A stretch of 34,296 nucleotides of DNA from a virus (lineage: Duplodnaviria > Heunggongvirae > Uroviricota > Caudoviricetes), in IMG/VR virus record IMGVR_UViG_2913128013_000001, positions 1 through 34,296 of that record; one strand, given 5' to 3'. The notes below the pieces were generated by a model that saw only the letters and a list, made by a program, of their open reading frames with translations, had not been told where the DNA came from and did no database searches. Both the position numbers and the translations under genes were made by a program. How positions within the stretch are numbered: the stretch's first letter is position 1; each line of letters starts with the position of its first letter. Positions 3,355-34,000 of the stretch are shown piece by piece.

Positions 3355-3626
3355 GTATTCGTATTGAAATTGGCGAACGTTATGTCGTTACCAGTGACAG
3401 CTTTCAGTTTATTCTCCACGAGAAAAAGAGAGCGGAAAGCGGTAAAAACGCCGGTCAGGAATGGCTGGCGGTGGTTGGTTATTACCCGAAATTAAGCCAG
3501 CTCGTTTCCGGCCTGATGCATCACGATATTCTGACCGGAAGCGCAAAGTCTTTTGCTGATTTAAACGCGCAGGTTGAGCAACTCAGCAAGCGTTGTTCAG
3601 AGGCTTTTGGCTCATATGGCCGTTAA
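3351..3626 (+). CDS. Hypothetical early protein, 91 aa (P2 orf83 position)
   Basis: ORF overlapping the preceding stop (ATGA) and the A start. Confidence 0.5.
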   Translation: MSIRIEIGERYVVTSDSFQFILHEKKRAESGKNAGQEWLAVVGYYPKLSQLVSGLMHHDILTGSAKSFADLNAQVEQLSKRCSEAFGSYGR

Positions 3627-5922
3627 AGCCTCCGGGCGTTTTGTCCCTCCGTCAGCATTTGCCGCAGGCACCGGTAAGACGTTTACCGGTGCTTATGCAT
3701 GGAACGCGCCACGCGAGGCTGTCGGGCGCGAAAGACCTCTTACACGTGACGAGATGCGTCAGGTGCAAGGTGTTTTATCCACGATTAACCGCCTGCCTTA
3801 TTTTTTGCGCTCGCTGTTTACTTCACGCTATGACTACATCCGGCGCAATAAAAGCCCGGTGCACGGGTTTTATTTCCTCACATCCACTTTTCAGCATCGT
3901 TTATGGCCGCGCATTGAGCGCGTGAATCAGCGCCATGAAATGAACACCGACGCGTCGTTGCTGTTTCTGGCAGAGCGTGACCACTATGCGCGTCTGCCGG
4001 GGATGAATGACAAGGAGCTGAAAAAGTTTGCCGCCCGTATTTCATCGCAGCTTTTCATGATGTATGAGGAACTCTGCGATGCCTGGGTGGATGCGCATGG
4101 CGAAAAAGAATCACTGTTTACGGATGAGGCGCAGGATCATCTGTATGGTCATGTTGCTGGCGCTGCACGTGCTTTCAATATTTCCCCGCTCTACTGGAAA
4201 AAATACCGTAAAGGACAGATAACCACGAGGCAGGCATATTCTGCCATTGCCCGTCTGTTTAACGATGAGTGGTGGACTCATCAGCTTAAAGGCCAGCGTA
4301 TGCGCTGGCATGAGGCGTTACTGATTGCTGTCGGGGAGGTCAATAAAGACCGTTCTCCTTATGCCAGTAAACATGCCATTCGTGATGTGCGTGCACGCCG
4401 CCAGGCAAATCTGGAGTTTCTTAAATCGTGTGACCTTGAAAATAAGGAAACCGGCGAGCGCATTGACCTTATCAGTAAGGTGATGGGCAGTATTTCTAAT
4501 CCTGAAATTCGCCGGATGGAGCTGATGAATACCATTGCCGGTATTGAGCGTTACGCCGCTGCAGAGGGTGATGTGGGGATGTTTATCACGCTGACCGCGC
4601 CGTCAAAGTATCACCCGACACGTCAGGTCGGAAAAGGCGAAAGTAAAACCGTCCAGCTAAATCACGGCTGGAACGATGAGGCATTTAATCCAAAGGATGC
4701 GCAGCGTTATCTCTGCCGTATCTGGAGCCTGATGCGCACGGCATTCAAGGATAATGATTTACAGGTCTACGGTTTGCGAGTCGTCGAGCCACACCACGAC
4801 GGAACGCCGCACTGGCATATGATGCTTTTTTGTAATCCACGCCAGCGTAACCAGATTATCGAAATCATGCGTCGCTATGCGCTCAAAGAGGATGGCGACG
4901 AAAGAGGAGCCGCGCGAAACCGTTTTCAGGCAAAACACCTTAACCGGGGCGGTGCTGCGGGGTATATCGCTAAATACATCTCAAAAAATATCGACGGCTA
5001 TGCACTGGATGGTCAGCTCGATAACGATACCGGCAGGCCGCTGAAAGACACTGCAGCGGCTGTTACCGCATGGGCGTCAACGTGGCGTATCCCGCAATTT
5101 AAAACGGTTGGTCTGCCGACAATGGGGGCTTACCGTGAACTACGCAAATTGCCTCGTGGCGTCAGCATTGCTGATGAGTTTGACGAACGCGTCGAGGCTG
5201 CACGCGCCGCCGCAGACAGTGGTGATTTTGCGTTGTATATCAGCGCGCAGGGTGGGGCAAATGTCCCGCGCGATTGTCAGACTGTCAGGGTTGCCCGTAG
5301 CCCGTCGGATGACGTTAACGAGTATGAGGAAGAAGTCGAGAGAGTGGTCGGCATTTACGCGCCGCATCTCGGCGCGCGTCATATTCATATCACCAGAACC
5401 ACGGACTGGCGCATTGTTCCGAAAGTTCCGGTCGTTGAGCCTTTGACTTTAAAAAGCGGCATCGCCGCGCCTCGGAGTCCTGTCAATAACTGTGGAAAGC
5501 TCACCGGTGGTGATACTTCATTACCGGCTCCCACGCCTTCTGAGCACGCCGCAGCAGTGCTTAATCTGGTTGATGACGGTGTTATCGAATGGAATGACCC
5601 GGAGGTCGTGAGGGCGCTCAGGGGCGCATTAAAACACGGGCTGAGAACACCAAATCGTCAGCAGAGAAACGGAAGCCCGTTAAAACAGTATGAAATGGCA
5701 CCATCGGCCAGACTGACCCGGTCGGAACGAGTGCAATTTACCCGTATCCGCGTTGACCTCGCTCAGAACGGTATCAGGCCGCAGCGATGGGAGCTTGAGG
5801 CGCTGGCGCGTGGAGCAACCGTAAATTATGACGGGAAAAAATTCACGTATCCGGTCGCTGATGAGTGGCTGGGATTCTCAACAGTAATGGAGTGGACATT
5901 ATGGCAAAAATTCACGAGGTAA
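3616..5922 (+). CDS. A: Replication initiation protein A (rolling-circle endonuclease), 768 aa
   Basis: Start chosen at MAVKASGRF (ATG 3616). Large protein with an HUH-type signature (EPHHDGTPHWHMMLF) and the AAGYIAKYISKN motif typical of rolling-circle initiators; size and position match P2 gpA. Confidence 0.85.
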   Translation: MAVKASGRFVPPSAFAAGTGKTFTGAYAWNAPREAVGRERPLTRDEMRQVQGVLSTINRLPYFLRSLFTSRYDYIRRNKSPVHGFYFLTSTFQHRLWPRIERVNQRHEMNTDASLLFLAERDHYARLPGMNDKELKKFAARISSQLFMMYEELCDAWVDAHGEKESLFTDEAQDHLYGHVAGAARAFNISPLYWKKYRKGQITTRQAYSAIARLFNDEWWTHQLKGQRMRWHEALLIAVGEVNKDRSPYASKHAIRDVRARRQANLEFLKSCDLENKETGERIDLISKVMGSISNPEIRRMELMNTIAGIERYAAAEGDVGMFITLTAPSKYHPTRQVGKGESKTVQLNHGWNDEAFNPKDAQRYLCRIWSLMRTAFKDNDLQVYGLRVVEPHHDGTPHWHMMLFCNPRQRNQIIEIMRRYALKEDGDERGAARNRFQAKHLNRGGAAGYIAKYISKNIDGYALDGQLDNDTGRPLKDTAAAVTAWASTWRIPQFKTVGLPTMGAYRELRKLPRGVSIADEFDERVEAARAAADSGDFALYISAQGGANVPRDCQTVRVARSPSDDVNEYEEEVERVVGIYAPHLGARHIHITRTTDWRIVPKVPVVEPLTLKSGIAAPRSPVNNCGKLTGGDTSLPAPTPSEHAAAVLNLVDDGVIEWNDPEVVRALRGALKHGLRTPNRQQRNGSPLKQYEMAPSARLTRSERVQFTRIRVDLAQNGIRPQRWELEALARGATVNYDGKKFTYPVADEWLGFSTVMEWTLWQKFTR

Positions 5923-6353
5923 AGCTGCACGCAAAATATTTCGACCTTGTGCTGGAAGGAAAGAAACGCGCAGAGTTTCGGAAAAATGACCGTAATTATG
6001 AGCGCGGGGACACGTTGATTTTGCATGAATGGGTGCAGGGTGTGTATACGGGGCGAAAGGTTGAAGCCCGGATAACAGATGTTACTGACCTGTCAGACTG
6101 GCTGGAAGATTATGTCTTGCTAAGTATTGAGCTGCTTAATACAGGTGCATATGAGATTGTGAACTGGAAAGAACTTAGTGAGCGTGGCCTGGTATTCAGA
6201 ATTAATCATGAAATTATGCATCAGCTCGGCCTTGCTGTTATGTATGAACCAGAGACGGGGATGTCTGGCGGGGCAATGGTTGCCACGGATGGAGCATGGA
6301 ACTATTCAGATGAACAGATTGAGCGTGCACAGCAAAACGGGTGGCTTGGATAA
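5901..6353 (+). CDS. ASCH/DUF3850-like (PUA-fold) protein, 150 aa
   Basis: ATG at 5901 with GGAG 8 nt upstream. N-terminus MAKIHEVKLHAKYFDLVLEGKKRAEFRKNDRNYERGDTLILHEW resembles the ASCH/DUF3850 family, from recollection. Confidence 0.55.
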   Translation: MAKIHEVKLHAKYFDLVLEGKKRAEFRKNDRNYERGDTLILHEWVQGVYTGRKVEARITDVTDLSDWLEDYVLLSIELLNTGAYEIVNWKELSERGLVFRINHEIMHQLGLAVMYEPETGMSGGAMVATDGAWNYSDEQIERAQQNGWLG

Positions 6354-6559
6354 TGCACAGAATACCAGGTGAGATACCGCACCATAAAACTAAAAATATC
6401 AAGCTGATGGCTATTGTTCAGCGTTTGCAGCAGATTATGGTCAACGAAAATCTGACGCCCGATGAGCTGGTCGGGTGTGCCGAAATAGTCCGGGATAATT
6501 ACGGGCGGCTTAACGATATCGGTCAGTCCAGAGTTATGCCACCACCACGCAGACGATAG
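6353..6559 (+). CDS. Small hypothetical protein, 68 aa
   Basis: ORF starting at an ATG overlapping the previous stop (TAATG). No recognisable motif. Confidence 0.3.
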   Translation: MHRIPGEIPHHKTKNIKLMAIVQRLQQIMVNENLTPDELVGCAEIVRDNYGRLNDIGQSRVMPPPRRR

Positions 6560-6788
6560 AGAACGCCGCCAGTCGTGAAACTTGTTTTCAGGGCTGGCGG
6601 GGTTGAACAACGAGCGAAGCGAGGCGTTAGTTGACAGTCATATTTTTACTGCGTTGGTGCTGGTTTTTGACGGTTGAAAGGAGTTAGCTCGGAGAGCTAA
6701 AGCTAACAACTTACAAATATTCAAAAGTAAGCTTCCTGTTGTTAACATAAGGTCGATTTTTTATGTGGATGATGCAAAAAGGATAGCT

Positions 6789-7520
6789 ATGGATACTGTA
6801 ATCGCTTTTCTATCACTCGCTTTTTTCGTTGCTTTTTTCATCGGGTTAATCAAACCATCACTGGTGCGGATGCCGAACCGTAAACGTGCAAGTGCGGTTT
6901 ATCTCGGAGGAGGTTTTGTATTGAGCATAATTGGTTCAATACTCTATCCAACAGAAAAAAGCCAGCCAGTTGCTAAAACTGATACATCAACCGTTGCAGA
7001 ACACCAAGTCCAAAAAACATTCGAATATGGTGGAAAAACACTCAAGGAATATCGGAACGAGCCAAAGAAAACTCGACACGATATTGTGAATAGTTACATT
7101 GATTTTAAGAAAGTGCCAGTCACCGCATCAGATGCATTTTATGCCTGCATGAGTGAATATACTTTTACCAAAGATGATGAGTTGAAACTCGGTGATGTTC
7201 TTGGGTGGTGCTTTAATGATTATGAAAATGACCCGAATTCACTAAACAATAAAATCAATCTTGATACATTTCAGAGTAATTTTAGTGGTTGGGATGGTTC
7301 TTATCGTCCATTGGAAAAACTAATTAAAGATAATATGAACGATGATTCATCTTATAAACATGTGTCAACGGTATATCATTTGGTTTTGAATAAAGACCCG
7401 CACGCCATTGTGAAAACCACATTTCGTGGCACTAATGCTTATGGAGGAGTAGTTAAACAGACTATTGCTGCGCGTGTCGACATCCGAACGGGCGAAGTCG
7501 TTTCAGTATTAGATAACTAA
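6789..7520 (+). CDS. Membrane-anchored hypothetical protein, 243 aa (cargo island A, gene 1)
   Basis: ATG at 6789 with AAGGA 6 nt upstream. Two predicted N-terminal transmembrane helices (VIAFLSLAFFVAFFIGLI and VYLGGGFVLSIIGSILYP) followed by a soluble domain of roughly 180 aa. Strongly AT-rich compared with flanking phage genes. Confidence 0.55.
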   Translation: MDTVIAFLSLAFFVAFFIGLIKPSLVRMPNRKRASAVYLGGGFVLSIIGSILYPTEKSQPVAKTDTSTVAEHQVQKTFEYGGKTLKEYRNEPKKTRHDIVNSYIDFKKVPVTASDAFYACMSEYTFTKDDELKLGDVLGWCFNDYENDPNSLNNKINLDTFQSNFSGWDGSYRPLEKLIKDNMNDDSSYKHVSTVYHLVLNKDPHAIVKTTFRGTNAYGGVVKQTIAARVDIRTGEVVSVLDN

Positions 7521-7523
7521 TCG

Positions 7524-7585
7524 TTGATGCCGTATTGACACTTGTTATACTAGTGGTGGAACGAGACTGCAATAGTCTGTTCCAC
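7524..7585 (+). promoter_or_regulatory. Sigma70-like promoter (TTGATG-16nt-TATACT) followed immediately by an imperfect 12-bp-arm inverted repeat (candidate operator or 5' stem-loop)
   Basis: TTGATG at 7524-7529 and TATACT at 7546-7551. Dyad GTGGAAC-g-AGACT (7556-7568) pairs with AGTCT-G-TTCCAC (7574-7585) with one bulge and a 5-nt loop. Confidence 0.35.
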
Positions 7586-7632
7586 TACAGGAGTAATTAC
7601 CTTGACTGTAAGTTGCTTTTATTGAGGGAACT

Positions 7633-8922
7633 ATGAAGTTTAAGACTGAATTGAGTCGAAAATTGCATGACTCGGTAGTGTTTGATTTGAAAAAAGACCT
7701 GGTAAAATTAGAGGGAAACCTAAAAAATACAGATTTGTTGTTGTCGTTTCAGTTCAAAATAATAAGGAATATAATTAGAAGTGAAAGGATGATCAAAGGA
7801 TTAAAGTCTTTCTTAGGGGAACTAAAGGCAACAAAAAGAAAAGGTGGTTTAAAAAAAGAACAATCTAAACTTATTAAGGAAAATATTAAGAGTGTTGAGC
7901 AGGTTATTGATGATGTGAAATTTAAAATATATATCTTCAAAATGTTTGGTGATAGTGTTGCTTTTTTGTATTTGGATAAGTTTGATATTAAGCATTTTTT
8001 TTATAATGTTGTGGATTACAGTCCCAAGGAGTCAGCGGGCTATATGGGAGGGAAGGATGGCTTAAAAGAAGAATGGGGATTGGTGAAGAAGGCCTGCAAG
8101 GCTGGTGTTCCTACGTTACTCAATGATATTACAATGAGTATGAGGCATGGTGATGTTTGTTTACTTGGTGAAGGTGCACCAGTACTGGTGGAGGTGAAAT
8201 CAAGTCAAAATAAAAATGATCGTGTTGAACGTCAAAAAAATAACCTTAATAGACTAGCTGAATTTTTAGCAGAAGATAAAGCTGAAGATTTTAGAGGGAT
8301 GCCATTAGTGTTAAGGAAAGAACTGTGTTTTTCAGAAGTTACATATAAAAAAGAATTTAATGAGCATCTGAATGTATGCAGGAAAAAAGGAATTTCATGG
8401 GTAAGGCTAGAAGATGGATTTTATGTGGTATCTAATCGTGGCTGTGATCTGGAAATAGCATTATCACAGTTGGATCTTAGAGGGAGGAAAATTGCACCTA
8501 TATTTTTGAATGAATATAAAAATAATCAATTGTGGGTTCCTTTAACTCCATTTGTTAATCTTATAAATGATGCGCGTGATTTGTGTGACTTTATAAATGG
8601 GGAGTTAACTATTCTCTGTGTTCTTGATTTGGATTGTTTTAAACAAATAGCTTTGAATGAAGGGTTTGAGCTTGTTTTTGTCGATGGTGAAGACTATTCG
8701 ATGATATTTAAAGAATTTGGTAGCTCATTGATTTGGGGTGTGTCATGGCAAATGATGCTTCGCACTCCTTTAGAAATGGTGTCAATGTCTTGGTTAATTA
8801 AAGATTCAATTGATAGATTTAAGCGTTTACAAAAGCAACATGCTGAGATGCAGCCTGCCACTGATGTTAATACATCCGAAACCTCCTTGTTTGAAAAATA
8901 TAGGCCTCTTTTTACAAAGTAG
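7633..8922 (+). CDS. Hypothetical protein with PD-(D/E)xK-like nuclease motif, 429 aa (cargo island A, gene 2)
   Basis: ATG at 7633 with GAGGGAA RBS. Very AT-rich and Lys-rich. Central motif E147...D165...D174(HGDVCLLG)...E187-V-K189(PVLVEVKSS) fits the restriction-endonuclease-like fold pattern. No Walker A motif seen. Confidence 0.6.
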   Translation: MKFKTELSRKLHDSVVFDLKKDLVKLEGNLKNTDLLLSFQFKIIRNIIRSERMIKGLKSFLGELKATKRKGGLKKEQSKLIKENIKSVEQVIDDVKFKIYIFKMFGDSVAFLYLDKFDIKHFFYNVVDYSPKESAGYMGGKDGLKEEWGLVKKACKAGVPTLLNDITMSMRHGDVCLLGEGAPVLVEVKSSQNKNDRVERQKNNLNRLAEFLAEDKAEDFRGMPLVLRKELCFSEVTYKKEFNEHLNVCRKKGISWVRLEDGFYVVSNRGCDLEIALSQLDLRGRKIAPIFLNEYKNNQLWVPLTPFVNLINDARDLCDFINGELTILCVLDLDCFKQIALNEGFELVFVDGEDYSMIFKEFGSSLIWGVSWQMMLRTPLEMVSMSWLIKDSIDRFKRLQKQHAEMQPATDVNTSETSLFEKYRPLFTK

Positions 8923-9011
8923 TCAGATGCTGTAGGTGTATATGCTATTGCATTAATTTGCATGCAAAACAAGTAGAGGTAAAACTCTTACAGGCTGCTT
9001 GGGGGATAGCT

Positions 9012-9039
9012 TTTGAATGCTAATGCATTTGCATTCAAA
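9012..9039. repeat. Perfect 9-bp inverted repeat with 10-nt spacer (TTTGAATGC-N10-GCATTCAAA) just left of cos
   Basis: Read directly from the sequence; the spacer contains the palindrome AATGCATT. A separate 12-bp perfect palindrome TTTGCATGCAAA lies at 8957-8968. Confidence 0.6.
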
Positions 9040-9058
9040 TTGCCCCACGAAGCGGGCG

Positions 9059-9077
9059 GGCGAGGCGGGGAAAGCAC
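9059..9077. other. cos: Candidate cos cohesive-end sequence (GGCGAGGCGGGGAAAGCAC)
   Basis: The 19-mer matches my recollection of the P2/186 cohesive end. It sits in the non-coding, GC-rich interval next to the portal gene, where cos lies in P2. Confidence 0.5.
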
Positions 9078-9219
9078 TGCGCGCTGGCGGTGGTGCTGAT
9101 TTTATTTTTTCAGCGTCTGAGCGCGTCGTGATGGCGTTTAGAGTGTGCGCCGGGGCGTTGGTGTGTCTGCGGGCTGTTTTGTGCGGTGGTGAGCGTGTGA
9201 GGGCGTGATGGCGGGGTGT

Positions 9220-9241
9220 AAAAAAGCCGCCCGCAGGCGGC
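9220..9241 (-). terminator. Rho-independent terminator downstream of portal gene Q
   Basis: On the minus strand: GCCGCC-tgcg-GGCGGC hairpin followed by TTTTTT, 5 nt after the Q stop codon. Confidence 0.6.
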
Positions 9242-9246
9242 GATGT

Positions 9247-10281
9247 TCAGCCGTTGTCAGTGTCCAGTGAGTAGTTTTTAAAGCGGATGACCTCCTGACC
9301 GAGCCAGCCGTTTATTTCCCGAATCCTGTCCTGTAACGGGATAAGCTCATTGCGGACAAAGACCTTTGCCACTTTCTCAATATCACCCAGCGACCCGACG
9401 TTCTCCGGCTTGCCGCCCATCAACTGAAAGGGGATGCGGTGCGCGTCCAGCAGGTCAGCGGCGCTGGATTTTTTGATATTAAAAAAATCGTCCTTTGTCG
9501 CCACTTCACTGAGCGGGATAATTTTGATGCCGTCTGGCTTTCCCTGTGGTGCATAGAGAAACAGATTATTAAAGTTATTGCGTCCTTTCGACTTGGCCAT
9601 GTTTTCGCGAAGTGAGTCAATGTAATCGCGATCCTGCAATGCGTCGGTGATATACATGATATATCCGGCATGTGCACCGTTTTCGTAATACTTGCGGCGG
9701 AACAGCGTGGCCGACTCATTCAGCCAGGCAGAGTTAAGGGCGCTCAGATATTCCGGCAGGCCGTACAGCTCCTGATTAATATCCGGCTCCAGCAGGTGAA
9801 ACACGGAGCCGGGCGTGAAAGGTGTCGGCTCGTTGAAGGATGGCACCCACCAGTAAACATCCTCCTCCACGCCACGGCGGGTATATTTTGCCGGTGAGGT
9901 TTCCAGTCTGATGACCTTACCGGTGGTGCTGTAACGCTTTTCCAGAAACGCATTACCGAACACCAGAAAATCCAGCACAAAGCGGCTGAAATCCTGCTGG
10001 GAAAGCCACGGATGCGGGATAAACGTTGAAGCCAGAATATTACGTTTGACGTAAATCGGTGAGCTGTGATGCACGGCAGCACGCAGGCTTTTTGCCAGAC
10101 CGGTAAAGCTGACCGGTGGCTCATACCATCTGCCGTTACTGATGCACTCGACATAATCCAGAATGTCACGGCGGTCGAGTACCGGCACCGGCTCGCCAAA
10201 GGTGAATGCCTCCATTTTCGGGGCGCTGGCGGTCATTGTTTTTGCCGCAGGTTGCGGTGTTTTCCCTTTTTTCTTGCTCAT
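9247..10281 (-). CDS. Q: Portal protein, 344 aa
   Basis: 344 aa, the same size as P2 gpQ; adjacent to cos and translationally coupled to the terminase gene. Confidence 0.9.
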   Translation of the reverse strand: MSKKKGKTPQPAAKTMTASAPKMEAFTFGEPVPVLDRRDILDYVECISNGRWYEPPVSFTGLAKSLRAAVHHSSPIYVKRNILASTFIPHPWLSQQDFSRFVLDFLVFGNAFLEKRYSTTGKVIRLETSPAKYTRRGVEEDVYWWVPSFNEPTPFTPGSVFHLLEPDINQELYGLPEYLSALNSAWLNESATLFRRKYYENGAHAGYIMYITDALQDRDYIDSLRENMAKSKGRNNFNNLFLYAPQGKPDGIKIIPLSEVATKDDFFNIKKSSAADLLDAHRIPFQLMGGKPENVGSLGDIEKVAKVFVRNELIPLQDRIREINGWLGQEVIRFKNYSLDTDNG

Positions 10282-12053
10282 CAGTAAAACTCCAGAATGG
10301 TGGATGTCAGCGGGGTGTTGATACCGGCGGTGAGTGGCTCATTTAACAGGGCGTGCATGGTCGCCCAGGCGAGGTCGGCGTGGCTGGCTTCCTCGCTGCG
10401 ACTGGCCTCATAGGTGGCGCTGCGTCCGCTGCTGGTCATGGTCTTACGGATAGCCATAAACGAGCTGGTGATGTCGGTGGCGCTGACGTCATATTCCAGA
10501 CAGCCACGTCGGATAACGTCTTTTGCCTTGAGCACCATTGCGGTTTTCATTTCCGGCGTGTAGCGGATGTCGCGCGCGGCGGGATAGAACGAGCGCACGA
10601 GCTGGAACACGCCGACACCGAGGCCGGTGGCATCAATACCGATGTATTCGACGTTGTATTTTTCGGTGAGTTTGCGGATGGATTCCGCCTGAGTGGCAAA
10701 GTCCATGCCTTTCCACTGGTGACGCTCAAGTATTCTGAATTTGCCACCGGCCACCACCGGCGGTGCCAGTACCACGCATCCGGCACTGTCGCCACGGTGT
10801 GACGGGTCGTAACCAATCCATACCGGGCGGGAGCCGAACGGATTTGCGGCAAACGGCGCATAGTCTTCCCATTCTTCCAGCGTGTCGACCATGCAGCGTT
10901 GCAGCTCCTCGAACGGGAACACCGACGCCTTGTCGTCAACAAATTCACACATGAACAGGTTTTTAAAATCGTCGGCGCTGTTTTCGCGTTTGAGCTGCTC
11001 AATGTCGAACAGCGTGCAGCCGCCTTTCAGCGCGTCCTCAATGGTGACAATCTGCCGCCACTGGCCGTCCGCACAGAGAAGCCCACCGGCAAGGGCGTTA
11101 TGACTGACGTCGATTTCCACGCGTTCAGCGGCGCTGGCGCGTCCCCGGTTAAACAGTTCACCGGACCAGAACGGGTAGGCGTCGTGCGCCAGCGTGGACG
11201 GGGTGGAGAAATAGGTCGAGCGCAGGTGACTCTGTGAGGCCATACCTGATGCCACCTTACGCAGTACCTGAAAATTCGGGATCCAGAAAATCTCGTCGAC
11301 GTACAGGTCGCCGTTATGGCTTTGTGCGGTGTTGGAGTTGGTGCCGAGAAAAATCAGTTTTGCGCCGTTATTGCCCAGGACAATCGGGTCACCGGTCAGG
11401 TCAACGTCAACCAGCCGGGCAAAGGCGATGATGTATTCGCGGAACACATACGCCTGCGTTTTACTGGCCGACAGAAAAATCTGGTTATGACCGGTTTTCA
11501 GGGCGCGCAGCAGCGCCTCGCGGGAAAAATAAAATGTCGCGCCAATCTGGCGGGATTTCAGGATATCGCGGATGCGGTGCTCAAGCCCGGCGCGATACCA
11601 GTGCAACTGATAGTCGAAAGACTGCTCAAAGAAAATCTGCTCCAGCTTTTCGATGGCCTCGTCACTGAAAAAATTCTTTTTCGGTTTGCGCCGTCCGCCT
11701 TTGTTGCGGTTAGCGACGTTCGGATTAAGGTCTGCCTCGTTGCCGGTCTGACTGTAACGGTTTACCCGTGCCAGTCGTTCAATCTGGCGTCCCAGCAGGT
11801 CAATTTCCTTGAAGTCACCGCCGGTTTTCTGCGGTTTGATGATGAGCTGGGTCAGCCGCGCTTCCAGGCTCATTTCGACACGGCTGATGGGGGCAACGTT
11901 GTCCCAGCCGTCGCGCTGTTTCCAGCTCTGCACTGTCGGGCGTTTCATCTGCAACATGGCGGCAATCTGCGGCACGGAAAATCCCTGCCAGTACAGCAGC
12001 GCCGCCTGACGACGCGGGTCGTGTAAAAGAGTGGTGTCTGTGGTGATGGTCAT
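10281..12053 (-). CDS. P: Terminase large (ATPase) subunit, 590 aa
   Basis: Start chosen at MTITTDTTLLHDPRRQ (ATG 12051-12053), giving 590 aa as in P2 gpP. Sits upstream of Q on the same strand. Confidence 0.9.
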   Translation of the reverse strand: MTITTDTTLLHDPRRQAALLYWQGFSVPQIAAMLQMKRPTVQSWKQRDGWDNVAPISRVEMSLEARLTQLIIKPQKTGGDFKEIDLLGRQIERLARVNRYSQTGNEADLNPNVANRNKGGRRKPKKNFFSDEAIEKLEQIFFEQSFDYQLHWYRAGLEHRIRDILKSRQIGATFYFSREALLRALKTGHNQIFLSASKTQAYVFREYIIAFARLVDVDLTGDPIVLGNNGAKLIFLGTNSNTAQSHNGDLYVDEIFWIPNFQVLRKVASGMASQSHLRSTYFSTPSTLAHDAYPFWSGELFNRGRASAAERVEIDVSHNALAGGLLCADGQWRQIVTIEDALKGGCTLFDIEQLKRENSADDFKNLFMCEFVDDKASVFPFEELQRCMVDTLEEWEDYAPFAANPFGSRPVWIGYDPSHRGDSAGCVVLAPPVVAGGKFRILERHQWKGMDFATQAESIRKLTEKYNVEYIGIDATGLGVGVFQLVRSFYPAARDIRYTPEMKTAMVLKAKDVIRRGCLEYDVSATDITSSFMAIRKTMTSSGRSATYEASRSEEASHADLAWATMHALLNEPLTAGINTPLTSTILEFY

Positions 12054-12226
12054 GAATACCTCGCCGTGATGAATACACGGCAAGGCTACTGAGTCGCGCC
12101 CCGCGATTCGCTAAGGTGCTGTTGTGTCAGTGATAAGCCATCCGGGACTGATGGCGGAGGATGCGCATCGTCGGGAAACTGATGCCGACATGTGACTCCT
12201 CTAATCACTATTCAGGACTCCTGACA
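12054..12226. promoter_or_regulatory. Divergent late promoter region (leftward P-Q and rightward O-N-M-L operons)
   Basis: 173-bp interval between divergent P and O starts. Contains the dyad CCGTG-N7-CACGG at 12064-12080. By analogy to P2, Ogr-activated promoters are expected but not resolved. Confidence 0.4.
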
Positions 12227-14216: not shown

Positions 14217-14960
14217 ATGACGAGTCCCGCACAGCGCCACATGATGCGGGTCTCGGCAGCGATGACCGCGCAGCGGGAAGCCGCCCCGCTGCGACATGCA
14301 ACTGTCTATGAGCAGATGCTGGTCAAGCTGGCCGCAGACCAGCGCACACTGAAAGCGATTTATTCAAAAGAGCTGAAGGCCGCAAAAAAACGCGAACTGC
14401 TGCCGTTCTGGTTGCCGTGGGTGAACGGCGTGCTGGAGCAGGGCAAAGGTGCACAGGATGACATTCTGATGACGGTCATGCTGTGGCGTCTGGATACCGG
14501 CGATATTGCCGGTGCGCTGGAGATTGCCCGTTATGCCCTGAAGTACGGTCTGACCATGCCGGGTAAACACCGCCGCACCCCGCCGTACATGTTCACCGAG
14601 GAGGTGGCGCTCGCGGCCATGCGCGCCCACGCTGCCGGTGAGTCTGTGGATACCCGCCTGCTGACGGACACCCTTGAACTGACCGCCGCTGCTGACATGC
14701 CTGATGAAGTGCGCGCAAAGCTGCACAAAATCACCGGTCTGTTTCTGCGTGACGCTGGTGATGCCGCAGGTGCGCTGGCGCACCTGCAACGTGCGACACA
14801 GCTCGACTGTCAGGCAGGCGTCAAAAAAGAGATTGAACGACTGGAGCGGGAGCTGAAACCGAAGCCGGAGCCGCAGCCAAAAGCGGCCATCCGTACCCCG
14901 CGTAAGACCCGGAGCGTGACACCGGCAAAACGTGGACGTCCGAAAAAGAAAGCCAGTTAA
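14217..14960 (+). CDS. M: Terminase small / endonuclease subunit, 247 aa
   Basis: 247 aa with a basic Lys/Arg-rich C-terminus; position and size match P2 gpM. Confidence 0.85.
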   Translation: MTSPAQRHMMRVSAAMTAQREAAPLRHATVYEQMLVKLAADQRTLKAIYSKELKAAKKRELLPFWLPWVNGVLEQGKGAQDDILMTVMLWRLDTGDIAGALEIARYALKYGLTMPGKHRRTPPYMFTEEVALAAMRAHAAGESVDTRLLTDTLELTAAADMPDEVRAKLHKITGLFLRDAGDAAGALAHLQRATQLDCQAGVKKEIERLERELKPKPEPQPKAAIRTPRKTRSVTPAKRGRPKKKAS

Positions 14961-25284: not shown

Positions 25285-27312
25285 TTACTGAAGTAAAACA
25301 TTCATTCTTTCTCTCCGATAATCCACAAGTTGTTCAATATCGCTCTCAAGACTTTCTATCCCAAAAGCAACTGAATCACTAATTTGTAGAGTGTGTTTTT
25401 TGACAACAGTGCTTTCAAAAAACTCATTTAATTGAATTGGTTTTTCAAATTGTTTAATTAAGTCAGAGGCTTGAAGCGTATTATTTTCCCATAATTTATG
25501 CATGGGGTGATTTGTGGACGTTAACGTACCATATTCATTTCTTACTTTAATTCCACTTATATGACTATTGTGCAGTATTTTGCTAAGTGCCGAATAGTCA
25601 GTTACATACACCCCATAGTATTTCCCAGGAAGTGAGAATGGAAGGTTGTTGACAATTACTGGTATAATTTCAAAGTTATTAATATCAAGGCCAAATTTAT
25701 CGCTGAATACATCCTGGTGTTTTTTTAGACCATCAGCAAGTCTGATAACTTGATTAGCTGCGTCAATTAAAAACATTTTCTTCTTGAATGCTTTAGTTAC
25801 AGAACCACCGGATAAATTTGTATTTTTACATTCCAGAACAAATACTTTATCATCTAATACAATTATTGCATCATACTCATATTCTTCATTCTCTCTTTTG
25901 AACTTAAAATGCTGATGATTTATTTTTAAATCAGAGAGCATTTCGTGGATCTCTTTTTCAAAACCAAATCCTTTTTGGGAAAGATCTACTTTTAGTGATG
26001 AGAACTTTGATAATATAATGTTACTTATTCCAGGGCTGAAATAGCCAATACTACAGAATAGATAATCTCCAGATTTCATTTTTAAAAGAGGAGAATCATA
26101 AAGGTCACGGGATTCATTGTTAAAGCTAGCCAAATCAATAAATAGCTTTGATTTATTACCAGGTATACCAACTAATTGTAAATATGTGCTCAATTCCGAT
26201 GAAGTAAATACTTCTCTTTTTTCCGATATTTTGGATAGTCTTTCTAGCGCGGAGTAACACCTAACCCATTCACGCAGTGTTAAACCAAAAATTAACATGC
26301 TCTCATCAGTTAAACATAGAGTCTCGAGTAGTGCTACATATGCCGGAAACTCTGATGTCGTTATTGAATAACCGTTATTAATATCTGCAAGCCTAGTTAA
26401 ATTTTCATCTACTGTTTTATGGACATTATGTTTATACAACGCCTCCATGAAGTTCTGTGATAACTTTGAATACAGCCTTTCATTTGACATGTAATCCAAT
26501 CTTATGAATTGTTCTTTAGTTAGATTAAATTCATAGAATGTCTCAAGACCAGCGTTCTCTAATCCATTAGGTAAGTTTGTAGAGGTATATTCATTTAATT
26601 CATAATCAAATAGCAGGCATGTTTCTACAGAACGCTCTAAAGAAGACCACAGTATCGAATTGTAAAATATTACCCCAGCATCATTAATATCATCTTCCTT
26701 AACATCTACCATGTCAGGAATTACAATGAAACCCCCACTATTTAACTTATAATTAAAGCCAATCATCTTCAAACTAAGAGATAGATAATCGACTGTTTTG
26801 GATATTACAACATCAGGAGAGTATGATTCACCTTGTTTGTTTTTTAAGTATGCGGTAGAAATATCAAACAATTTTGGTTCCCGGTTAATGCTCTCTAGAT
26901 ATTTCTTTGTTTCGTTTTTTAAAAAATCTATCTCACCTTGCGCCCGTCTTATTATAGCCCAACACTGTATTTCCGGCGTTTTTTTGCTGATGGGTAAGCT
27001 TGATAAGTTAGATTTAATAACATCAAATATTTTTTCCGCACAAATACATAGTTTTTTAAGGTTATCTATTTTTTGTATTAAATCAGGGACACTTGTAGCT
27101 CCTTTTAAGTCGGTGAGGAATGAATTTCTTTTTTCCCGTAAATTCACATTGTGGGGTTGTATATTGATGTTTTTTTTAAACATCGCAAAAAGGAAACGAA
27201 GTATTTTATCATTATAATTCTGTTTTAACTGTATCACTATGTTCTTTGACTTGAATTTGCAATAGTCGATTTCTAACGTTTTATAGATATTTTCTGCATG
27301 TGATTGTGACAT
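25285..27312 (-). CDS. Large hypothetical protein with C-terminal PD-(D/E)xK nuclease-like motif, 675 aa (cargo island B)
   Basis: ATG at 27310-27312 with AAGG RBS. Very AT-rich, opposite strand to the phage late genes. Motif GFGFEKEIHE (E452/E454)...YDAIIVLDDKVFVLECK (D481, D487/D488, E494, K496). No Walker A motif. Confidence 0.6.
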   Translation of the reverse strand: MSQSHAENIYKTLEIDYCKFKSKNIVIQLKQNYNDKILRFLFAMFKKNINIQPHNVNLREKRNSFLTDLKGATSVPDLIQKIDNLKKLCICAEKIFDVIKSNLSSLPISKKTPEIQCWAIIRRAQGEIDFLKNETKKYLESINREPKLFDISTAYLKNKQGESYSPDVVISKTVDYLSLSLKMIGFNYKLNSGGFIVIPDMVDVKEDDINDAGVIFYNSILWSSLERSVETCLLFDYELNEYTSTNLPNGLENAGLETFYEFNLTKEQFIRLDYMSNERLYSKLSQNFMEALYKHNVHKTVDENLTRLADINNGYSITTSEFPAYVALLETLCLTDESMLIFGLTLREWVRCYSALERLSKISEKREVFTSSELSTYLQLVGIPGNKSKLFIDLASFNNESRDLYDSPLLKMKSGDYLFCSIGYFSPGISNIILSKFSSLKVDLSQKGFGFEKEIHEMLSDLKINHQHFKFKRENEEYEYDAIIVLDDKVFVLECKNTNLSGGSVTKAFKKKMFLIDAANQVIRLADGLKKHQDVFSDKFGLDINNFEIIPVIVNNLPFSLPGKYYGVYVTDYSALSKILHNSHISGIKVRNEYGTLTSTNHPMHKLWENNTLQASDLIKQFEKPIQLNEFFESTVVKKHTLQISDSVAFGIESLESDIEQLVDYRRERMNVLLQ

Positions 27313-32834: not shown

Positions 32835-34000
32835 TGCTGGATGCGCTGACATTTGATGCAGGCAGTACGCTGACGCCGGATTACATGCTGATGCTCGACA
32901 GCAGGGATATTACCGGCAATATCAGCGACCGTCTGATGAGCATGACCCTGACGGATAACCGGGGCTTTGAGGCTGACCAGCTTGATATTGAACTGAACGA
33001 TGCCGACGGGCAGGTCGGGCTGCCGATTCGTGGCGCTGTCCTGACGGTGTATATCGGCTGGAAAGGTTTTGCCCTGGTATGCAAAGGGAAATTTACCGTT
33101 GATGAGGTTGAACACAGGGGCGCGCCGGATGTGGTCACCATCCGCGCCCGGAGTGCAGATTTTCGCGGGACGCTCAATTCCCGCCGTGAAGGCTCATGGC
33201 ATGACACCACACTCGGTGCGATTGTTGAGGCGATAGCCTCCCGTAACAAGCTGGAAGCCAGTGTCGCTCCGCCACTGGCCGGAATTAAAATCCCGCACAT
33301 CGACCAGTCGCAGGAGTCTGATGCGAAATTCCTGACCCGTCTTGCTGAACGCAACGGCGGCGAGGTGTCGGTAAAAATGGGAAAACTGTTGTTTCTCAAA
33401 GCGGGGCAGGGGGTGACGGCCAGCGGTAAAAAAATCTCGCAGGTCACCATCACCCGCAGCGACGGCGACCGTCATCATTTTGCGATTGCTGACCGTGGAG
33501 CCTATACCGGTGTAACGGCAAAGTGGTTACACACCAAAGACCCGAAACCGCAAAAGCAGATGGTAAAACTGAAACGCAAAAAGAAAGAGAAACACCTGCG
33601 CGCACTGGAGCACCCGAAAGCGAAACCGGTCACGCAGAAGAAAGCGCCAAAAGTACCGGAGGCGCGCGAAGGTGAATACATGGCCGGTGAAGCTGACAAC
33701 GTTTTTGCCCTGACCACGGTATATGCCACGAAAGCGCAGGCCATGCGTGCCGCTCAGGCGAAGTGGGATAAACTGCAACGGGGCGTTGCGGAGTTCTCCA
33801 TCAGCCTGGCTACCGGTCGTGCTGATATTTACACGGAAACACCGGTCAGAGTGTCAGGCTTTAAGCGCGTCATAGACGAGCAGGACTGGACAATCACTAA
33901 GGTGACACATTTTCTGAATAATAGCGGCTTCACGACGTCCTTAGAGCTTGAGGTCAGGCTTTCTGACGTGGAGTACGAAACAGAAGATGATGAGCAATGA
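32834..34000 (+). CDS. D: Tail protein D (late control gene D-type), 388 aa
   Basis: 388 aa, overlapping the U stop; last gene of the tail operon, as in P2. Confidence 0.85.
   Translation: MLDALTFDAGSTLTPDYMLMLDSRDITGNISDRLMSMTLTDNRGFEADQLDIELNDADGQVGLPIRGAVLTVYIGWKGFALVCKGKFTVDEVEHRGAPDVVTIRARSADFRGTLNSRREGSWHDTTLGAIVEAIASRNKLEASVAPPLAGIKIPHIDQSQESDAKFLTRLAERNGGEVSVKMGKLLFLKAGQGVTASGKKISQVTITRSDGDRHHFAIADRGAYTGVTAKWLHTKDPKPQKQMVKLKRKKKEKHLRALEHPKAKPVTQKKAPKVPEAREGEYMAGEADNVFALTTVYATKAQAMRAAQAKWDKLQRGVAEFSISLATGRADIYTETPVRVSGFKRVIDEQDWTITKVTHFLNNSGFTTSLELEVRLSDVEYETEDDEQ

Follow-up and report, generated by a model that had tools for sequence, protein, structure and literature searches.

What is the function of the DNA that separates the last cargo gene from the portal gene in a P2-like prophage, and which of its sequence features are the conserved ones? 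The question was raised by positions 8923-9219 of a phage sequence of 34,296 nucleotides (IMG/VR record IMGVR_UViG_2913128013_000001, Caudoviricetes), the whole of which is called the window below. A first-pass annotation made from the sequence alone had placed there a P2-type cohesive end accompanied by two strong palindromes, and had proposed that the palindromes could be terminase recognition elements or terminators of the upstream cargo gene. Our comparison with other P2-family phages makes it highly probable that the region is the cos site, for packaging and cleavage, of an apparently complete P2-like prophage, and likely that TGCAT repeats on its left side are terminase recognition sites. 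The cos site itself is an element of an already known kind; it fixes both ends of the virion genome as well as the right-hand limit of the cos-proximal hotspot, and taken alone is routine. The phased array of repeats and its clade-wise switch between GCAT and GCAG are by-products of the comparison that are, with moderate probability, new: no description of the phased array was found in the literature reached, a scope outside which the primary P2 cos study lies.

Comparative Material and Numbering

Positions in cos are numbered from the first base of the 19-nt cohesive end as +1, negative positions being those left of the nick. As cos flanks, IMG/VR sequences that exactly match the P2-type or the 186-type end were taken and aligned without gaps, anchored at the nick. 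As representatives, 54 P2-type and 52 186-type flanks (106 in all) with less than 80% identity over the approximately 120-130 nt left of the nick were used. Phage phiE202 was left out of the comparison because the end of its record is not at cos.

Identity and Location of the cos Site

The 19-mer GGCGAGGCGGGGAAAGCAC at 9059-9077 on the plus strand is the sole match in the window when up to three mismatches are allowed, against an expectation of 0.00 from shuffled sequences. It is identical at 19 of 19 positions to both cosL (1-19) and cosR (33575-33593) of P2 (AF063097), and the proposal that it is the P2 cohesive end, the equivalent of cosN, was thus borne out; alignment with the cos regions of P2 and 186 gave an identical end in P2 and the same layout in both phages. 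Among the phage matches listed, at least 14 records begin with their position 1 aligned to window position 9059, and the fiAA91-ss record carries a cosL annotation at the base homologous to 9059. The polarity of the nicks was taken from the annotation of the 186 record, which places the top-strand cut at the 19-mer's 5' end and the bottom-strand cut at its 3' end. On this basis, nicks are predicted 5' of 9059 on the top strand and after 9077 on the bottom strand, and terminase (gpP and gpM) acting there would leave GGCGAGGCGGGGAAAGCAC as a 19-nt 5' overhang, as in P2.

The characters of a P2-type cos found here are the 19-mer, the 55-bp core, the location with terminase genes P and M close by, and the phased TGCAT repeats, a character that was derived from the present comparison and not from the literature. 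Gene order in the window is P2-like, that is, int (1-996), an HTH repressor-like gene at the position of C, replication gene A (3574-5922), a DUF3850/ASCH gene, cargo, cos, Q and P, with O, N and M following in this order beyond P (scaffold, capsid genes and small terminase M). On its left, cos has the cargo hotspot that follows A, and on its right the Q gene, a layout that is the same in RefSeq relatives. The Q homologue (9247-10281, minus strand) matches Pfam Phage_portal and is named "phage portal protein" in its RefSeq relatives. The large terminase subunit, homologous to P2 gpP (10281-12083, minus strand), contains Terminase_5 (residues 22-79), HTH_23, Terminase_6N and Terminase_6C domains and has an N-terminal HTH, and the small terminase subunit, homologous to P2 gpM (14217-14960, plus strand), matches Phage_term_smal with E = 5e-48. 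The intrinsic terminator of the P-Q operon was found by a terminator scan on the minus strand at 9216-9241 (hairpin at 9226-9241, GCCGCCTGCGGGCGGC followed by a T run), and its counterpart in AF063097 is the feature "tQ" (160-181). P2 and the window agree in tQ, in the flank to the right of cos as far as Q, and in the position of cos between hotspot and Q.

Between cos and this terminator lies a G+T-rich non-coding stretch (9085-9216, plus strand; GC skew +0.36 and AT skew -0.35), which belongs to the P2/186 backbone, with approximately 95% identity to P2-like phages and conservation in P2 and, in part, in 186. It had been described beforehand as GT-rich and repetitive, and the skews confirm the first half of this description; the repetitive character is weak, since only short direct repeats of 9-12 nt in two or three copies are present, and Tandem Repeats Finder detected nothing in the right flank. 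P4 (NC_001609) has no similarity right of +26 and is thus without both this stretch and Q; because P4 lacks a counterpart, the P2 terminase probably does not require the G+T-rich stretch for recognition. Since 9085-9216 is located beyond tQ, it is probably outside the P-Q transcript. A search of 8700-9400 against Rfam gave only a chance match to a snoRNA (E = 0.41).

The Core around the Nick

The cohesive end of P4 is identical to the 19-mer, and P2 and P4 share a continuous identity that corresponds to 9030-9084 of the window on the plus strand; it starts with TGCATTAAAA at -29, ends with GCGCGC at +26, and is gone on both sides. A 55-bp cos core common to P2 and P4 was described by Ziermann and Calendar (1990), as cited in two later papers (PMC5694545, PMC9594776). 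Judging from the identity between P2 and P4, this published core would be the stretch from -29 to +26. In the form cited there, the published core takes in the proximal TGCAT only, which counts against the interpretation of the repeats proposed below. The window has the same base as P2 at 50 of the 55 positions, and it retains every column that is invariant among the 106 representative flanks. For cos function, approximately 125 bp may be required.

The G+C-rich left flank of the nick (9040-9058, plus strand) reads TTGCCCCACGAAGCGGGCG in the window, compared with the consensus CCGCCCCATGAAGCGGGCG, and its columns from -9 to -2 are invariant or almost so among the 106 representatives. At -23, -19 and -18, the window has bases that are uncommon in the column counts of these flanks (T at the latter two positions), and they are among five substitutions by which the window differs from P2 in the left half of the core. 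Substitutions at these three positions might weaken cos. Next to this flank is a proximal block at 9023-9039 on the plus strand, composed of ATGCA-TT-TGCAT followed by TCAAA, for which the consensus at -36 to -20 is ATGCAaCTGCATTAAAA. GCAT at -28 to -25 is found in all 106 representative flanks, and the exact TGCAT at -29 in 49 of the 54 P2-type and 51 of the 52 186-type flanks. The complete arrangement ATGCA-NN-TGCAT starting at -36 is less general (25/54 and 40/52, respectively); P2 has ATTAAGG at -36, where the window keeps ATGCA.

Phased TGCAT Repeats Left of the Nick

Further to the left, the window contains a distal block at 8949-8963 (plus strand) with two copies of TGCAT spaced by 10 bp, at 8949 (-110) and 8959 (-100), in addition to the proximal TGCAT at 9030 (-29) and ATGCA at 9023 (-36); a third distal site at about -120 (8939-8943) is degenerate and reads TATAT. 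Within the window alone, this accumulation is unremarkable, because six TGCAT or ATGCA in 130 nt do not go beyond what shuffled sequences give (maximum 8), and the case for the repeats therefore rests on comparison with relatives. There the positions are strongly conserved. When one mismatch is allowed, TGCAT is present at -111±1 in 53 of 54 P2-type (98%) and 52 of 52 186-type flanks (100%), at -101±1 in 51/54 (94%) and 51/52 (98%), at -29±1 in 100% of both types, and at -121±1 in 54% and 69%, respectively. At 14-15 control centres between -201 and -41, the corresponding proportion is 0-13% in both types.

The distal and proximal blocks are separated by a spacer (8969-9011) whose sequence is variable and whose length is kept among relatives. 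Mean pairwise identity from -95 to -68 is 0.29, compared with 0.27 in unrelated upstream DNA, and the distal block nevertheless stays in register within ±1 nt in the ungapped, nick-anchored alignment, across a spacer that cannot be aligned. Since spacer identity is at the random level while the register is kept, motif and spacing have been retained amid diverged surroundings. A medial inverted repeat in the spacer, CAG-NN-CTGGCGCG, was considered as a further element and rejected; it is semi-conserved, being found in approximately half of the flanks, does not keep the register in the window and is absent in P2.

The same geometry is seen in individual phages. P2 has TGCAT at -111, -101 and -29. 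In 186 (U32222) and PSP3 (NC_005340), there are three distal copies approximately 10 bp apart (at -120, -111 and -101 in PSP3), and ATGCAACTGCATTAAAA at -36 together with the G+C-rich flank reproduces the architecture of the window; in the 186-type end, GGCGTGGCGGGGAAAGCAT, positions +5 and +19 are not those of the window, and position -1 is A where the window has G. P4 has TGCAT at -124, -111 and -101, that is, to the left of its continuous identity with P2, and phiRSA1 of Ralstonia has TGCAT at -129, -110, -100 and -29 and ATGCA at -36. For HP1, in which the position of the nick is uncertain by 7 nt, a repeat of its own, CACGGAAA, was noted.

The Two Palindromes

Both palindromes reported by the first-pass annotation are present. 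The 9-bp arms TTTGAATGC (9012-9020) and GCATTCAAA (9031-9039), with AATGCATT held in the spacer between them, are part of a lineage-specific 28-bp near-palindrome at 9012-9039, which is complementary at 13 of 14 pairs and in which the proximal block with its -36/-29 dyad is embedded; P2 is without it. The perfect 12-bp palindrome TTTGCATGCAAA occupies 8957-8968 and holds the -100 TGCAT as TGCATGC. Of these two, the shorter carries little information: three perfect 12-bp palindromes exist in the window against 9.9±3.4 expected, and with three found where about ten are expected, the 12-bp symmetry is without statistical weight. TGCATGC is a common extended form of the repeat, the TTT and AAA that flank it in TTTGCATGCAAA are lineage-specific, and most relatives have TTTGCATGCG or TTTGCATGTG, which are not palindromic, at the -100 site.

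Since the last cargo gene (7633-8922) is on the plus strand and convergent with Q, both palindromes could be read as intrinsic (rho-independent) terminators that halt rightward cargo transcription before cos. As RNA, the repeat at 9012-9039 can indeed fold into a hairpin with -11.6 kcal/mol (z = -3.3), and the spacer of the relative L069 does contain a genuine terminator hairpin rich in G+C. A terminator scan found no terminator-like site at 8957-8968 or 9012-9039, and a G+C-rich stem-loop directly followed by a U/T tract is found at neither place; the two stems are rich in A+T, what follows them is UUGCCCC or AACAAG and not a U tract, and folding of the 12-bp palindrome is on a par with that of shuffled sequences (z = -0.1). 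Furthermore, the positions of the TGCAT cores are unchanged in P2, with its leftward old and tin, and in 186, whose array is downstream of the annotated terminator t95b. Termination of the cargo gene, which the first-pass annotation had allowed for, is thus highly improbable.

The 28-bp near-palindrome requires separate consideration, since only 0.01 palindromes of this quality are expected per window and one is found. Its right arm is perfected by C at -23, a base present in 3 of the 106 flanks, in which A prevails (101/106), and the near-palindrome results from this change from A to C combined with cargo-linked sequence on the left. The 124-nt flank at 8935-9058, which includes the palindrome, has matches in 17 of 5426 complete E. 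coli genomes, and the palindrome core is found in two IMG/VR contigs; the palindrome is invariably accompanied by the same cargo gene. E. coli TUM14771 (NZ_CP128875) and strain 98207 are two carriers of the locus. DNA hairpin z-scores for equivalent segments are -3.6 in the window, -1.5 in the prophage of MS7163, +0.4 in P2 and -1.5 in P4, and a hairpin or cruciform as a trait of the family was dismissed because P2, P4 and MS7163 are without it. One might then suppose that the near-palindrome has a function of its own, as an operator for a cargo protein or as a cruciform modulating cos, or that the rare core bases have weakened or inactivated cos in this lineage. The rarity of such a palindrome, its constant linkage to one cargo gene, its hairpin potential, missing in relatives, and its dependence on the rare base at -23 beside the rare -19 and -18 speak for such readings. 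On the other side, the cargo proteins have no recognizable DNA-binding domain and no Pfam match at all, the palindrome is built of extra ATGCA/TGCAT half-sites of the family and may be a by-product of them, and the strains with the variant are of human, dog, chicken-meat and seawater origin, a spread at least compatible with a mobile and functional phage. We judge these possibilities improbable.

The extra symmetry of both palindromes is probably incidental. By sequence comparison, the conserved property is the phased TGCAT repeats and not palindromy, which is lineage-specific, and the proposal that the palindromes are terminase recognition elements is therefore favoured by the comparative data in a modified form, with the repeats in the place of the symmetry.

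Clade-Wise Switch of the Repeat Motif

In phiCTX of Pseudomonas (NC_003278), the geometry is the same, and GCAG(G/A) takes the place of TGCAT at every site: repeats 10 bp apart are located at about -109/-99, two more are located at -36/-28, and the cohesive end is 21 nt long and of the GGCGTGGCGGGG type. Among 46 non-redundant phiCTX-type flanks, GCAG is present at -109 in 44, at -99 in 40, at -36 in 41 and at -28 in 30, and none has GCAT at -110, -100 or -28. Conversely, no P2-type flank has GCAG at these sites, and among 186-type flanks it is found in 4 of 52, at -36. In the phiCTX record, annotated "R4, R5, R6 repeats" extend over cos and may be the GCAG sites. A one-letter change that has occurred in every copy suggests a change in specificity of a single phage-encoded reader. 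Since TGCAT occurs in phages of Escherichia and Ralstonia, and GCAG in those of the phiCTX type in Pseudomonas, the motif tracks the phage clade and not the host.

These data bear on the possibility that the array is a promoter or operator for the cargo genes of the hotspot, and not a packaging signal. In favour of this, the old-tin transcript of P2 begins on the minus strand at 33424/33426, which is approximately position -150, so that the -35 region of its promoter abuts the distal repeats. The repeats are registered to the nick whatever the neighbouring gene is, at the same distance from it beside the leftward old/tin of P2 and where neighbours run toward cos (the window, MS7163, psu of P4 and orf97 of 186), and the scan gave no promoter-like site at 8939-9058. 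Registration within ±1 nt of the nick, combined with a concerted switch that includes the -29 site in the core, would be unexpected for cargo promoters, and we consider this reading very unlikely.

A host architectural protein, rather than terminase, could also use the repeats to bend cos DNA, as IHF does at cosB of lambda. The fixed-length spacer between the blocks suggests looping or bending, and the phiCTX record has an annotated IHF site near cos. This site is approximately 300 bp from the nick and outside the array, TGCAT bears no known resemblance to the IHF consensus, and the distribution of the motif (TGCAT in phages of E. coli, Salmonella, Yersinia and Ralstonia, GCAG in the phiCTX-type phages of Pseudomonas) follows clade and not host relatedness. 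A host protein as the reader is thus unlikely.

A Putative Recognition Signal for Terminase

P4 relies on its P2 helper for capsid, tail and terminase (PMC9122126). Since TGCAT repeats are common to P2 and P4 outside the genes that they share, and P4 depends on this helper, the repeats are most simply explained as packaging signals. They are probably the TGCAT set of this lineage that guides the packaging enzyme, and their most likely reader, as far as sequences can indicate it, is terminase, through gpM or through the HTH domain at the N terminus of gpP; a search by sequence in PDB found no solved structure for relatives of gpM or gpP.

The recognition signal would be asymmetric, with its place on the left side of the nick. 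The proximal dyad ATGCA-NN-TGCAT-TAAAA (-36 to -20) would adjoin the G+C-rich flank, and about 65 bp further left, two or three TGCAT with a 10-bp spacing, at about -121/-111/-101, would follow beyond a spacer of free sequence and fixed length. The 10-bp phasing places the distal copies on one face of the helix, and together with the fixed spacer of approximately 65 bp it suggests an oligomer bound on one DNA face, with the spacer bent or looped.

In lambda, cos consists of cosN and of cosB with R sites for gpNu1 and an IHF site, and the ends are 12 nt long. The repeats of P2-type cos may bind the recognition subunit of terminase in a manner like the R sites of cosB. This likeness would be a functional analogy, in which a nicking site is accompanied, on one side only, by short repeats that serve the recognition subunit; to our knowledge, lambda cos has no sequence similarity to P2-type cos, and the terminase families differ, the subunits of the window being in other Pfam families. 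A further contrast with lambda is that the P2-type array is situated on what will be the right end of the mature genome. From this placement it is predicted that terminase retains the right end, which would be the first to enter the capsid.

If the repeats are recognition sites, they determine how short a cos fragment can be in cosmid and transducing-particle designs based on P2 and P4. It has been remarked that longer cos flanks transduce better (PMC9594776), and recognition of the repeats, if true, would explain this improvement. It would also provide a sequence rule for finding cos and for predicting packaging compatibility between helpers and satellites in uncultured Peduoviridae.

Boundary of the Cargo Island

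The cos-proximal hotspot is known for anti-phage systems (PMC9122126), and it has been pointed out that the hotspot is directly beside cos and that cos may promote exchange (PMC9122126). In the window, the cargo region extends over 6765-8922 and contains two ORFs. The last one (7633-8922, plus strand, from the ORF list) is transcribed toward cos and matches phrog_14906, and no match was found for it in Pfam, NCBIfam or PADLOC. The cargo differs from that of P2, in which old and tin point away from cos.

The first-pass annotation had taken the palindromes as the right boundary of the cargo island. The distal block begins approximately 17-27 bp past the end of the cargo CDS at 8922, so a boundary near this place holds for the coding sequence; non-shared DNA reaches further, to about 9009, within the cos flank. 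Homology to other P2-like prophages resumes at 9009-9012 (the cos side has matches in 2143 of 5426 E. coli genomes), and the prophage of MS7163 has 5801-7516 and 9010-9300 in common with the window and lacks 7517-9009. Since the unshared DNA extends up to about 9009, an exchanged cassette brings its own distal repeats and spacer, and the right junction is inside the cos flank, in keeping with the remark on hotspot and cos cited above (PMC9122126).

These observations can be joined into one reading, which we put forward tentatively as a possibility that falls a little short of being favoured. In it, the recognition module would lie mostly outside the 55-bp core; its motif would have switched in concert, with GCAT in the clades of P2, 186, P4 and phiRSA1 and GCAG in the phiCTX type; and cassette exchange would recombine inside the packaging signal, with each anti-phage cargo cassette having its own copy of the distal block, which is placed leftward of the point, at about -50, where homology usually breaks off. 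If this is true, cargo swapping takes place inside the packaging signal. In P4, the variable hotspot is on the opposite side of cos (PMC9122126).

Cargo genes and the cassette junction at cos

In the window, the P2 hotspot near cos is occupied by a two-gene cargo on the + strand, the first gene (6765-7520) matching phrog_3403 and the second (7633-8922) matching phrog_14906, both families of unknown function. Searches of Pfam, NCBIfam and PADLOC returned no matches for either gene. This hotspot is an established location of anti-phage systems (PMC9122126), and Rousset et al. (2022) list the gene order "DUF3850/ASCH + hypothetical + hypothetical" in their supplement. The related P2-like prophage of E. 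coli MS7163 retains the first cargo gene with 95% identity, whereas its second cargo gene is unlike that of the window.

Comparison of the window with the MS7163 prophage has placed the right junction of the exchanged cassette (7517-9009) at about 9010, that is, at -49 from the predicted cos nick. The junction thus falls within the presumably functional cos flank, and each cassette therefore supplies its own distal TGCAT block, which holds putative terminase recognition repeats, together with the spacer that follows. In the IMG/VR relative L069, a 13-bp G+C-rich stem with A and T runs on either side, AAAAGCCCTCCAG-tc-CTGGAGGGCTTTT, is found at -72 to -45 from its nick, within the spacer from the distal to the proximal TGCAT blocks. 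Judged by its sequence, the stem looks like a bidirectional terminator, and the spacer can therefore accommodate other signals.

A 675-aa ORF (25285-27312, - strand), flanked by the tail-fibre genes on one side and the tail-sheath gene on the other, occupies the place of the second (Z/fun) cargo hotspot of P2 and is a candidate for a second defence cargo. A weak NERD nuclease-related domain was detected in it (E = 9e-5), and PADLOC gave no match for this ORF.

Repeats and rare bases in the cos flank

At -109, -99, -36 and -28, phiCTX and phiCTX-type IMG/VR contigs have GCAG(G/A), while P2- and 186-type flanks have TGCAT. Haemophilus HP1 has a separate repeat of its own, CACGGAAA, in three copies near the right end. 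Three bases in the cos core of this lineage are rare among the 106 representative P2- and 186-type left flanks: C at -23 (9036; 3/106), T at -19 (9040; 7/106) and T at -18 (9041; one flank). Of these, the C at -23 is the base that makes the right arm of the 28-bp palindrome (9012-9039) complete.

G+T-rich stretch to the right of cos

The roughly 130 bp from cos to the terminator of the portal gene Q (9085-9216) are non-coding and G+T-rich. This stretch is conserved in P2 and in part in 186 but missing from P4. It is overlapped by the ORF of a 61-aa "hypothetical protein", WP_277112076.1 (9017-9208, + strand), called by RefSeq/PGAP across cos in several E. coli genomes. In virion DNA this ORF would be split in two by cos cleavage, and its annotation as a gene is probably spurious. 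The + strand at 9081-9106 also holds a weak hairpin that resembles a terminator and has a T-rich tail.
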